From Candidatus Nomurabacteria bacterium RIFCSPLOWO2_01_FULL_41_18 (GTDB taxonomy: Bacteria; Patescibacteriota; Minisyncoccia; Phycocordibacterales; UBA9973), in contig MFUZ01000008.1 in NCBI GenBank assembly GCA_001785865.1, positions 1 through 46,343 of the forward strand: DNA of 46,343 nucleotides. The letters run 5' to 3'. This document shows, one piece after another, positions 23,725-25,864 of the stretch (within the stretch, counting starts at the first letter, position 1; every line of letters begins with the position of its first letter). The notes beneath the pieces were generated by a model. The model did no database searches. It was given only the letters and a program-made list of their open reading frames with translations, and had not been told where the DNA came from. The translations under genes were made by a program, and so were the position numbers.

Positions 23725-24393
23725 TCACTTATTGTGTTTGGTATCGCGAATAATTTTGCCGTTTTCCATCGTTATCACTCTTTTGTTGATCGAATCGATC
23801 ACTCCTCGGTTGTGAGTGGCCAGGATTACTGTCGTACCGAGATCATTTATTTTCTTCAAGATCTGCACGATCTCGTGTGTATTTATCGGATCGAGGTTGC
23901 CGGTCGGTTCGTCTGCGATGATGACCTCGGGCTGATTGATGATCGCCCGGGCGATCGCCAGCCTTTGCTGTTCACCTCCAGACATCTGGTTTGGAAAATG
24001 AAAAAGGCGATGGCCGAGATCAACCAGCTCGAGCACGTGCGGCACATCGGAGGCTATCTCTTCATCCGTCTTGCCGACGGCTTCCATAGCAAAAGCTATG
24101 TTTTCGTATGCGGTCTTATTTTGCAATAGTTTGAAATCTTGAAATACCACCCCGATACGCCTCCGAAGCTTGGTCAGTTCCTTGCTTTTCAATTTGTGAA
24201 TATCAATTGATTCAAATAGGACTGTCCCTTCAGTCGGAGTGGCATCCGCGAGGATCATCTTGGTGAGAGTGGTCTTGCCTGCGCCTGAATGACCGACGAT
24301 AGACACAAATTCCCCTGCGACAATGGTCAAAGTCACATCGTCCAAGGCCAAACCATCCCTATAAGCTTTTGAAACGTTGTTGAAGTAAATCAT
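23725..24393 (-). CDS. ftsE: Cell division ATP-binding protein FtsE
   Basis: GHSGAGKT, MSGGEQQR, ADEPTGNLD. Confidence 0.9.
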   Translation of the reverse strand: MIYFNNVSKAYRDGLALDDVTLTIVAGEFVSIVGHSGAGKTTLTKMILADATPTEGTVLFESIDIHKLKSKELTKLRRRIGVVFQDFKLLQNKTAYENIAFAMEAVGKTDEEIASDVPHVLELVDLGHRLFHFPNQMSGGEQQRLAIARAIINQPEVIIADEPTGNLDPINTHEIVQILKKINDLGTTVILATHNRGVIDSINKRVITMENGKIIRDTKHNK

Positions 24394-24501
24394 CCCGTTA
24401 CGAAATAAACGCGGACACTAGAGTGACGCATCTATTTTTATTATTACTAAAATTTATTAATAAGGTCATATATGTTATATGTGTCCGCGATTTCGTACGG
24501 G
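24394..24501 (-). mobile_element. TIR miniature element E4 (108 bp) abutting ftsE start codon
   Basis: CCCGTACGAAAT...ATTTCGTAACGGG-ATG; subterminal CGCGGACAC/GTGTCCGCG inverted repeat; no clean duplication. Confidence 0.8.
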
Positions 24502-24502
24502 A

Positions 24503-24763
24503 TTATCCCGTACAGAACAGGAAGCGCTTTAATCGTTGCTTGAGATACAATTTGCCCCTTCCTGACTTCAAATACAATTCTCGGTTCCTTGCGTCATGCT
24601 CATCCAAACACGCTTCATAGTATATTATCTTAAAGGGGCCTCGTCCTTTTGTATATAGAGATTTACCCTCAGTATGTTCTTTGAAGCGCTTCCGCAAGTC
24701 ATTTGTGTAACCTGTATAAAACTTACCGCTTTTCTTACTTTTTAATATATAAGTATAAAACAT
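24503..24763 (-). CDS. Small GIY-YIG nuclease ending in a TIR
   Basis: FYTYILKS...FYTGYT, RE..LKSG; last codons TGT ACG GGA TAA come from the TIR. Confidence 0.85.
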   Translation of the reverse strand: MFYTYILKSKKSGKFYTGYTNDLRKRFKEHTEGKSLYTKGRGPFKIIYYEACLDEHDARNRELYLKSGRGKLYLKQRLKRFLFCTG

Positions 24764-24790
24764 GGCAAGTTCTGTTTGGGAGCACCTCTC

Positions 24791-24823
24791 TATTATATCA
24801 TGGTTCGGAATTACTCACCATGA
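24791..24823 (-). repeat. 33-bp hairpin repeat carrying a -10 box, copy 1
   Basis: TCATGGTGAG-N6-CGAACCATGA-TATAATA; differs from 38447-38479 only in the 6-nt loop. Confidence 0.75.
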
Positions 24824-24872
24824 CCTTAAAAATTTATCTATTGAAGAGTCACAAATCCTTCTCTGCCTCAAT

Positions 24873-24940
24873 CCCGTACAAAGCAGGTCGCCCCAAGGTG
24901 ACCGTAGCACTCGCTAGACGCGAGGGCGGCTTCGTACGGG
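24873..24940 (-). mobile_element. TIR miniature element E5 (68 bp) in the 3' end of prfB
   Basis: ATTGAT-CCCGTACGAAGC...GCTTTGTACGGG-ATTGAG; displaced tail IEAEKDL* at 24849-24872. Confidence 0.8.
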
Positions 24941-25864
24941 ATCAATGAAGATACCTATGTCCCCATCCAAAACTGCATCTACATTGCTGGTTTCCGCCTC
25001 TGTCCGGTGATCTTTGACCATTTTATATGGGTGCATTACATAAGAGCGTATCTGGTTCCCCCATTCTATTTCTGTGTTTTTTAATTTCATACTCTCTTCT
25101 ATGCTCTTTTTTTCTTCTTGGGCTTTTTTGAATATTTTTGCGCGCAAAATAGAAAGCGCTTGTTGCCTATTTTGCTCTTGGCTGCGTTCACCAGAAGCAT
25201 GAACAGAAATATTGCTTGGTATGTGTATAATTCTGACAGCCGTTTCTCTTTTATTCACATTTTGCCCTCCGGGGCCAGACGAACGGGCAAATTCTATTTT
25301 TAAATCTGCGTCAGGTATTACAAAATCTTTCTCATCTAGTTTCCCAAACTTCGGCAGAACTTCGACCAAAGCAAAAGAGGTATGACGCTTTGCATTCGCA
25401 TTAAATGGTGAAACACGCACAAGTCTATGCACCCCAGATTCATTTTTCAACATCCCATAAGCACCCGATTTCTCTCCACCCTCTCCTTTCAGGAGAGGGC
25501 CACGGGTGAGGTTCTTTATCTCAAAAGAAACATTTCTATATCCATTATGATCATTTTTATGCTCATGAATAAAATTAATTCCCCAACCTTTTTTATCAGC
25601 ATATTTCATATACATAGAGAGAAGCATCCCTGCGAAATCTTCCGCATCGTCTCCTCCTGCACCGGAGATAATAGTCATCACAGCATTGCCTTTGTCATAT
25701 TTTCGCGGGCCGACATTACCCTCTTTTTGGTTTTTAAGTTCAGCAAGTTCTCGTAACACATTTTGTGCCTTGTTTTTGTCATTCCAAAAGTCCGGACTTA
25801 TCATTTCCTCTTCCAGGCGTTTTATTTGCTCTTCTATTGTGTTTTTGTCTTCCCCTTTATCCAT
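24914..25864 (-). CDS. prfB: Peptide chain release factor 2
   Basis: SPF tripeptide, GGQ motif, WGNQIRSY; short N-terminus, no frameshift site seen. Confidence 0.95.
   Translation of the reverse strand: MDKGEDKNTIEEQIKRLEEEMISPDFWNDKNKAQNVLRELAELKNQKEGNVGPRKYDKGNAVMTIISGAGGDDAEDFAGMLLSMYMKYADKKGWGINFIHEHKNDHNGYRNVSFEIKNLTRGPLLKGEGGEKSGAYGMLKNESGVHRLVRVSPFNANAKRHTSFALVEVLPKFGKLDEKDFVIPDADLKIEFARSSGPGGQNVNKRETAVRIIHIPSNISVHASGERSQEQNRQQALSILRAKIFKKAQEEKKSIEESMKLKNTEIEWGNQIRSYVMHPYKMVKDHRTEAETSNVDAVLDGDIGIFIDPVRSRPRV
25479..25511 (-). repeat. CCCTCTCCT/AGGAGAGGG palindrome inserted in frame in prfB
   Basis: Same family as 43183-43217 and 44557-44592; encodes LTRGPLLKGEG. Confidence 0.75.

Follow-up and report, generated by a model that had tools for sequence, protein, structure and literature searches.

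The prfB locus and the altered end of release factor 2

We analyzed the 3' end of prfB, the gene for release factor 2 (RF2), in contig MFUZ01000008.1 of an ultra-small bacterium, Candidatus Nomurabacteria bacterium RIFCSPLOWO2_01_FULL_41_18 (assembly GCA_001785865.1). The analyzed window of 46,343 nucleotides (nt) is the entire contig, and the genome comprises 750 kb in 9 contigs with 40% G+C. In this window, prfB is interrupted close to its end by a hairpin element of 70 nt, here called E5, and the displaced end of the gene is preserved on the far side of the element. The features of the site are as follows, in window coordinates.

24914..25864, minus strand: prfB (RF2), an open reading frame (ORF) of 316 aa with its stop codon TAG at 24916..24914, inside E5
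24942..24945, minus strand: upstream copy of the TTGA target-site duplication, 4 bp in gene orientation
24872..24941, minus strand: hairpin element E5, 70 nt, T-CCCGTACGAAGC...GCTTTGTACGGG-A, with a GC-rich core
24868..24871, minus strand: downstream copy of the TTGA target-site duplication, 4 bp
24849..24871, minus strand: displaced native prfB tail, (A)TT GAG GCA GAG AAG GAT TTG TGA, coding for IEAEKDL and a stop

The insertion of E5 into prfB, with an exchange of the RF2 C-terminus, was confirmed. RF2 in the window ends in ...DGDIGIF-IDPVRSRPRV, and the 3' end of its gene reads TTC ATT GAT CCC GTA CGA AGC CGC CCT CGC GTC TAG on the minus strand; the TAG is followed by the remaining hairpin and then by GGG ATT GAG GCA GAG AAG GAT TTG TGA. 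E5 sits between the Ile and Glu codons of prfB, seven codons from the native end. The final nine residues, DPVRSRPRV, are encoded by the element, with host sequence supplying bases one and two of the D codon, and they stand in place of seven native residues (IEAEKDL). The A of the displaced ATT is the last base of E5 (24872), and positions 24849-24872 together form the 24 nt that code for IEAEKDL and its stop. The two alternative peptide ends of RF2 are ...DGDIGIFIDPVRSRPRV and ...DGDIGIFIEAEKDL.

RF2 was found in 40 related genomes, and the C-termini were examined in the 29 best matches, 23 of which showed a native-type end of the form F(I/V/L)(E/D)AE(K/R)xL(C) before the stop. Empty prfB sites in relatives read TTC ATT GAG GCA GAG AAG AAT TTG TAG, with ftsE beginning 10-30 bp past the prfB stop, and an element-free prfB junction would join TTCATTGA directly to GGCAGAG. 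The initial annotation of this DNA had proposed that an inserted element replaced the last residues of RF2 and that the native tail survives beyond it, and the FIEAEKxL-like ends and empty sites of the relatives bear out both points. Its refuting condition, DPVRS-like ends in relatives, has to be applied with caution; four relatives do show DP(V/E)(R/Q)S, and only because the same element is present in them.

The junctions were checked in independent assemblies from ENA, JGI and Logan. The source samples, of groundwater and sediment, underlie ERZ27254763, ERZ4903055, JGI 3300002105 and SRR3989342. The identical chimeric RF2 of 316 aa was called on 22 contigs from independent assemblies of different samples. 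Among ten fetched loci, nine were base-identical to the window across the stretch compared, and the tenth agreed across E5 and diverged solely downstream of it. Additionally, all 13 contigs carrying the exact FtsE had the same arrangement. An empty-site allele of the same strain was found neither among the 22 RF2 contigs, nor among the 13 FtsE contigs, nor in the RF2 cluster at 90% identity, which has one member.

The alignment of the window RF2 to the NCBIfam prfB profile reached position 349 of 353, four profile positions short of the end, and its alignment to RF2 chains in the PDB stopped seven chain residues before their end; in the window RF2, these alignments end at residue 308/309. Release factor 1 and RF2 are each encoded by a single gene in this genome. 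With 58 of 378 long ORFs ending in TGA, and no other RF2 gene, RF2 is needed in this genome. As only the last seven residues are affected, UGA is in use and one related species lacks the DNA of the old tail, the truncated RF2 is very probably still functional. We also observed another in-frame insert within prfB (25479-25511; ..NLTRGPLLKGEGGEKSG..), which forms a gap in the alignment to the PDB RF2 chains and matches a separate repeat family.

Structure, ends and target-site duplication of E5

The GC-rich core of E5 is arranged as GCCGCCCTC-hairpin-GTGCTACGGTCACCTTGGGGCGACCTGC, with two inner hairpins, and the TAG that ends RF2 lies in the loop of hairpin 1. The inverted-repeat ends span 12-14 bp, the outer stem has 14 bp, and the stems show compensatory changes among copies; the fold has a z-score of -5.7 as DNA and -6.0 as RNA. 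E5 has no coding capacity of its own and is read only as part of the host ORF. Searches of E5 against Rfam, at the gathering thresholds and with a permissive E-value, returned nothing but a meaningless match to a miRNA hairpin (E = 0.86). An intrinsic terminator was considered and rejected, as E5 has no T-run and received no terminator call.

The ends ATCCCGT...ACGGGAT define a family; of 101 genomes from the genus, 48 contained it, and a reversed control pattern gave 0. We used a set of 93 copies, consisting of 60 fetched with their flanks, 8 from the window's own genome and 25 of the E5 subfamily. The element proper is Y-CCCGT...ACGGG-R, in which Y and R pair (T..A or C..G), and the target duplication across the 93 copies is 4 bp with the consensus T/C-N-N-A. 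This duplication was exact in 60 of 68 start-codon copies and 17 of 25 E5-like copies, against 0-2 in shifted controls, and 23 of the 25 E5-like copies matched in at least 3 of the 4 bases. Two other lengths were rejected. A 2-bp duplication, with ATCCCGT..ACGGGAT as the element, is out because the left copy also carries C wherever C follows ACGGG-A (5/5), and a duplication of 5 or 6 bp is out because the outermost bases differ and pair mutually in 10 copies. In E5, the additional matching A is the final base of the element, and the T/G mismatch is one of element against host. The initial annotation had counted a duplication of 5-6 bp; the actual one is the 4-bp TTGA, and the bases beyond it belong to the element and pair with each other. 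The AT-NN-AT-like target that it had suggested was roughly right, the target being (A)TNNA. E5, however, is no exception among the ATG-targeting elements, being a member of a distinct GC-rich subfamily.

The E5 subfamily and the start-codon elements

Most copies of the family have an AT-rich core and are located exactly on start codons. In these, a TGNA duplication preceded by A is joined by the last A of the element, which restores the ATG (58/68); a TGNA duplication was found in only 5 of the 25 E5-like copies (Fisher p = 7e-9). A frame rule of the upstream-ORF or translational-coupling kind was rejected for the start-codon elements, whose lengths fall in all three phases.

With a covariance model, R1, made from four E5-like copies, we detected about 36 strong copies among 212 genomes from the genus; outside it, a match was seen in only 3 of 190 other genera of the order. 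Of the 25 E5-like copies, 23 measure 68 or 71 nt; the duplication brings this to 72 or 75 nt, and the frame is kept. The element was open throughout within the host ORF in 24 of 25 copies, E5 being the exception. Most copies share a single reading phase, whichever way they are oriented, and yield DPVRSRSPQGDRST..RAASNG(I/V) or DPVRSRP..ESATxTLGRPASNG; the hosts include YidD, RsmH, XerC/D, FtsW/RodA and Sua5 (Pfam), as well as leucyl-tRNA synthetase. Judged from these reading frames, copies of the E5 subfamily would normally be translated through as an insert of 24-25 residues in housekeeping proteins. E5 is in the usual phase, with a length of 70 nt (74 nt with the duplication). With 1 nt missing and a TAG in the hairpin-1 loop, it shortens RF2 rather than lengthening it.

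Another E5-like copy of this genome (G000 C6:268258-268331) has decayed ends, ATTCTGT..GACGGAAT, and provides the stop and the last residues of the upstream gene (...LLLLVY-NSVRSRLRQ before the stop). Further copies were observed in other genomes. In one of them (L149/L168, G090:C3:43407-43548), a tandem E5-like pair lies in frame inside leucyl-tRNA synthetase, which reads ...YWLGV-DPVRERSPQGDRSTASGRAFSNEV-DPVRERSPQGDRSTASGRAFSNGV-DWYNGGNEHT.... One codon of yidD carries an E5-like copy in five genomes, with TTAA as both copies of the duplication in L131, L132 and L161 and CTAA as both in L140 and L160; such concordant pairs suggest separate insertions into slightly different targets. In L206 (G097:C14:5752), an element with an AT-rich core and stops occupies a TTGA site 12 codons into a putative rodA/ftsW gene, which would need to restart at the rebuilt ATT/TTG.

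The prfB site in related genomes

The prfB site is occupied in several other species of the genus, in the following states.

G144: E5-like element, same orientation and same TTGA; new RF2 tail VDPERSRPR before the stop
G061: E5-like element, same orientation and same TTGA; new tail IDPEQNRPR before the stop
G096: E5-like element, same orientation; deletion of the old tail and of the element's right end
G073: whole element in inverse orientation between two intact TTGA copies; new tail IDPVQSRSSQGDRSTC before the stop
G015: remnant, an in-frame perfect palindrome of 24 nt, CCCCGTCGTTCGCGAACGACGGGG; sister of G073 (support 98/95)
G014: same codon taken by a different element, with a Y1-transposase-like gene

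In total, 5 copies and 1 remnant were found at the prfB site in the 212 genomes, and the pattern TTGATCCCGWACRAARC revealed no further copies at this site in the same genomes. The inverted element of G073 does not agree with the insertion polarity that had been read from the window. The occupied genomes lie dispersed over the RF2 tree, where G061 is paired with the empty G008 and G096 is grouped with the empty G196 and G009. The element would have entered, left or flipped at a prfB hot spot more than once. Co-conversion of the flanks, which homing would lead one to expect among the occupied alleles, was rejected, since by eye the upstream flanks have diverged to about the degree of the remaining prfB sequence.

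Several neighboring features were seen at these sites. In G014 (L007, G014:C76), RF2 stops at ...DLFI, the same Ile codon, and is followed on its 3' side by a gene like those of the IS200/REP-associated Y1 transposases (MAKRRVPLAEGEFFHIYNRGN...), with TTAACCAGGTTAAGG palindromes on both sides. Between the element at the prfB site and the GIY-YIG element, G144 (L135, G144:C2) carries a mazE/mazF-like toxin-antitoxin pair that has a TTGACA..TATACT promoter of its own, and a mazE-like gene is found at the corresponding place between prfB and ftsE in G096 (L154, G096:C7) and G073 (L153, G073:C28). The prfB-ftsE spacer of L005 (G018:C9) holds an unrelated hairpin of about 100 nt (..TTACTTTCGGTAATGC..GGGGGAGGGACCCGGGAATCC..ATTACCGAAAGTAA), the spacer of other relatives being 10-30 bp.

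The GIY-YIG element h and a proposed mobilization of E5

Between ftsE and the body of prfB, the window holds E5 and two further elements, called h and c.

24506..24781, minus strand: GIY-YIG element h, 276 nt, ends T-CCCAAACAGAAC...GTTCTGTACGGG-A, with an ORF at 24503..24763 (86 aa)
24393..24502, minus strand: gene-less element c, 110 nt, with CCCGTACGAAAT-type ends, adjoining ftsE; its last base is the A of the ftsE ATG
23725..24393, minus strand: ftsE

The h protein matches the Pfam GIY-YIG domain over residues 1-69 and has no other domain; it scored 25.9 bits against NCBIfam TIGR01453, below the cut-off of 56. The protein cluster of this nuclease carries database names that point to Candidatus Nomurabacteria. 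GIY-YIG genes like that of h were found in 122 of the 212 genomes, and the ends of the elements co-vary with the nuclease clade. The h clade (82-100% identity to h) has the ends CCCGAACAGAAC...GT(A/T)CGGG and lies between prfB and ftsE wherever prfB is visible, a second clade (77% identity) has the ends CCCGTACGAAAT, and a third (68-75% identity) has the ends CCCGTTAGAGAT. The coding relatives with these ends are 276-280 nt long and encode only a GIY-YIG protein of 86-87 aa, with no transposase and no HUH gene, and gene-less copies with the ends of the nuclease elements were found in the same genomes. The copies at the prfB site share the h-type ends CCCG(A/T)AC, in contrast to every other E5-like copy, which has CCCGTTAG. 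Additionally, prfB was occupied in 3 of 8 genomes with an h nuclease versus 3 of 204 without one (p = 7e-4).

From these associations, it is likely that the h nuclease, encoded about 100 bp downstream of E5, mobilizes E5 in trans. The nuclease would recognize the hairpin ends, probably as single-stranded DNA as the Ssn nucleases do, and the target would be opened at TNNA with a stagger of 4 nt.

Beside this unit, we observed that a 36-nt stretch at 24788-24823 is repeated at 38444-38479 with 86% identity (CTCTATTATATCATGGTTCG..CACCATGA). The repeat holds a TATAAT and an inverted repeat, TCATGGT..ACCATGA; it lies 5' of the GIY-YIG/ftsE unit and again 13.6 kb away, and is possibly a common operator and promoter.

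Interpretation and alternative explanations

Taken as a whole, the data are best explained by E5 being a non-autonomous miniature mobile element that inserted near the end of prfB, to which we assign a probability of about 0.75. Several properties of h, the resolution of the RF2 tree and the evolution of the displaced tail weigh against this explanation. The left end of h (24772-24781) reads CCCAAAC in the window, compared with CCCGAAC in 7 orthologous copies (G>A), and the orthologues of G226 and G144 have intact ends; the window copy of h with its altered end may have become immobile even with an intact nuclease. In G061 and G096, the prfB element is present without an h-type nuclease, and the end type common to h and the prfB copies could alternatively stem from local gene conversion with the nearby h. 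GIY-YIG enzymes cleave DNA and are not known to ligate it, and the characterized enzymes leave overhangs of 1-2 nt rather than 4.

The mobile-element explanation has to be compared with a single ancient insertion that was inherited vertically and precisely lost in most descendants, leaving an E5 that is no longer mobile. The RF2 tree is poorly resolved, and its well-supported branches force only at least 2 changes, which one old insertion and a few losses could supply. The derived end sequences common to the prfB copies, the sister relationship of G073 and the G015 remnant (98/95) and the downstream mazEF islet common to G096 and G144 also fit common descent. Nevertheless, 5 copies and 1 remnant are few for 212 genomes, the site is empty in the nearest RF2 relatives of G000, G061 and G096, and the G073 copy is inverted with both TTGA copies intact. 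Moreover, the displaced tail is conserved in a codon-like manner, although the intergenic DNA beyond it is not alignable. We therefore regard the ancient insertion as unlikely.

The displaced tail itself is difficult to reconcile with a simple history. In the four occupied genomes that retain the tail, we counted 5 synonymous and 2 non-synonymous changes, with the stop kept, and both non-synonymous changes fell at the D/N/G position, which is variable in empty genomes too. With a synonymous fraction of 0.167 for random single-base changes in the tail, this corresponds to p ~0.002 (hand binomial), and the DNA past the tail stop could not be aligned among the occupied genomes. Such codon-like evolution is not predicted by a simple long-term truncation. 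It possibly reflects recent repeated insertions or cycling in and out of the site, with which the inverted copy and the scattered distribution agree. A stronger version of this idea is that the prfB tail serves as a reusable docking site, at which the element leaves, re-enters or flips and the two RF2 ends alternate, or that bypass, frameshift or read-through continues to yield the native tail. Each of the two would account for purifying selection on the seven displaced codons in four species, and we hold the pair of them to be a speculative proposal with the odds clearly against it.

Continued production of the native tail, by translational bypass between the AUU-GA repeats, a -1 shift, read-through, RNA removal or frequent precise DNA excision, draws support from the same 5 to 2 ratio and the conserved stop. 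Read in the -1 frame, E5 also has no stop up to the tail, and RF2 is separated from an in-frame tail by only one loop stop in G144 and G061. The E5 hairpin lies between direct repeats, a setting favorable to precise deletion, as is established for transposon excision. Mobile bypass elements are known as well (bioRxiv 10.1101/2022.08.31.505936). A -1 frameshift and a bypass like that of gene 60 were nevertheless rejected as candidates, because a slippery heptamer is absent from the first nine codons and the would-be take-off codon is not followed by a stop. Furthermore, G096 keeps the truncated gene although its tail and the element's right end are gone, the copies of the subfamily have remained open and of a length divisible by three, which is sensible only if they are translated, and the empty allele was absent from all contigs and from the 90% identity cluster described above. 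Continued production of the tail is thus improbable, and less credible than the ancient insertion.

An assembly artefact, in which a repeat was collapsed or a chimeric contig was formed at prfB, is suggested at most by the 2 of 10 fetched contigs that terminate within E5, as assemblies frequently do at repeats, and can be set aside as exceedingly improbable, because all contigs spanning both junctions and the tail match the window in at least 6 samples from several assembly sources and because the orthologous prfB sites of four other species are occupied.

Comparison with known systems

Several known systems come close to E5. A first group, the Rickettsia palindromic elements (RPEs), are in-frame, translated palindromic repeats of about 150 bp in housekeeping genes (Ogata et al. 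2000, reviewed in PMC10969869). The E5 subfamily resembles them in that small palindromes are found in unrelated housekeeping genes, keep the frame, are translated and reuse sites; the likeness is one of behavior. The subfamily is shorter (68-71 nt versus about 150 bp), and its family, from Patescibacteria, differs in having a clear 4-bp TNNA duplication and ends in common with a tiny nuclease element and with start-codon relatives. E5 itself is further unlike the RPEs in that it breaks the frame and truncates its host gene.

The second group is that of the Ssn nucleases, single-domain GIY-YIG enzymes of 94 aa that are the studied proteins nearest to that of h. SsnA binds a hairpin repeat as single-stranded DNA and cuts a few nt outside it (Chenal et al. 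2025, PMC11893778), and the role of Ssn is the modulation of natural transformation (PMC11893778). As in h, a gene for a single-domain GIY-YIG protein of about 90 aa lies between copies of a hairpin repeat dispersed in the genome (NTS/SRM), and the stem of that repeat, ATTCCCGCG..CGCGGGAAT, resembles ATCCCGT..ACGGGAT. Unlike the E5 family, the Ssn repeats have no described mobility, target duplications or insertions in frame or at start codons.

We also compared E5 with other mobile elements. Classical MITEs (miniature transposable elements with inverted repeats), such as Correia, ERIC and RUP (PMC10969869), are likewise short and non-coding, have terminal inverted repeats and a target duplication, occur in many copies, have a longer coding relative with the same ends and alter the ends of genes. 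The coding relative in the E5 family, however, is the 276-280-nt element with a GIY-YIG nuclease of 86-87 aa rather than one with an insertion-sequence transposase. The bypass inserts of T4 gene 60 and the mitochondrial 'byps' (bioRxiv 10.1101/2022.08.31.505936) are also mobile hairpins in coding sequence flanked by matching codons (AUU GA on both sides of E5), but in E5 the codon after the take-off site is GAU, the stop comes nine codons later and the sister copies are translated. GIY-YIG homing endonucleases of the I-TevI type have an additional linker and DNA-binding domain, in contrast to the h protein, which has 86 aa and no extra domain. IS200/IS605 elements make no target duplication and use an HUH (Y1) transposase, whereas the E5 family has a 4-bp duplication and no HUH gene with its ends. 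By its sequence features, the system is an RPE-like in-frame MITE that appears to be paired with an Ssn-like mini-nuclease. No description of this element family was found in the literature searched.

Significance

These results indicate that the C-terminus of a translation factor can be recoded by a mobile hairpin of 70 nt even when that factor is essential. As the RF2 C-terminus has been rewritten by E5, the last seven residues of RF2 would be dispensable in these bacteria. The prfB site displays empty, occupied, inverted, truncated and decayed states, and these fix the 4-bp TNNA duplication and the true ends of the element. In addition, matching ends link in-frame RPE-like elements to start-codon elements and to a tiny GIY-YIG nuclease. 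If it is true that this nuclease moves the elements, the two would be among the smallest autonomous/non-autonomous pairs of mobile DNA known, and a role in mobility would be added to the Ssn-like nucleases, whose biology has barely been explored.

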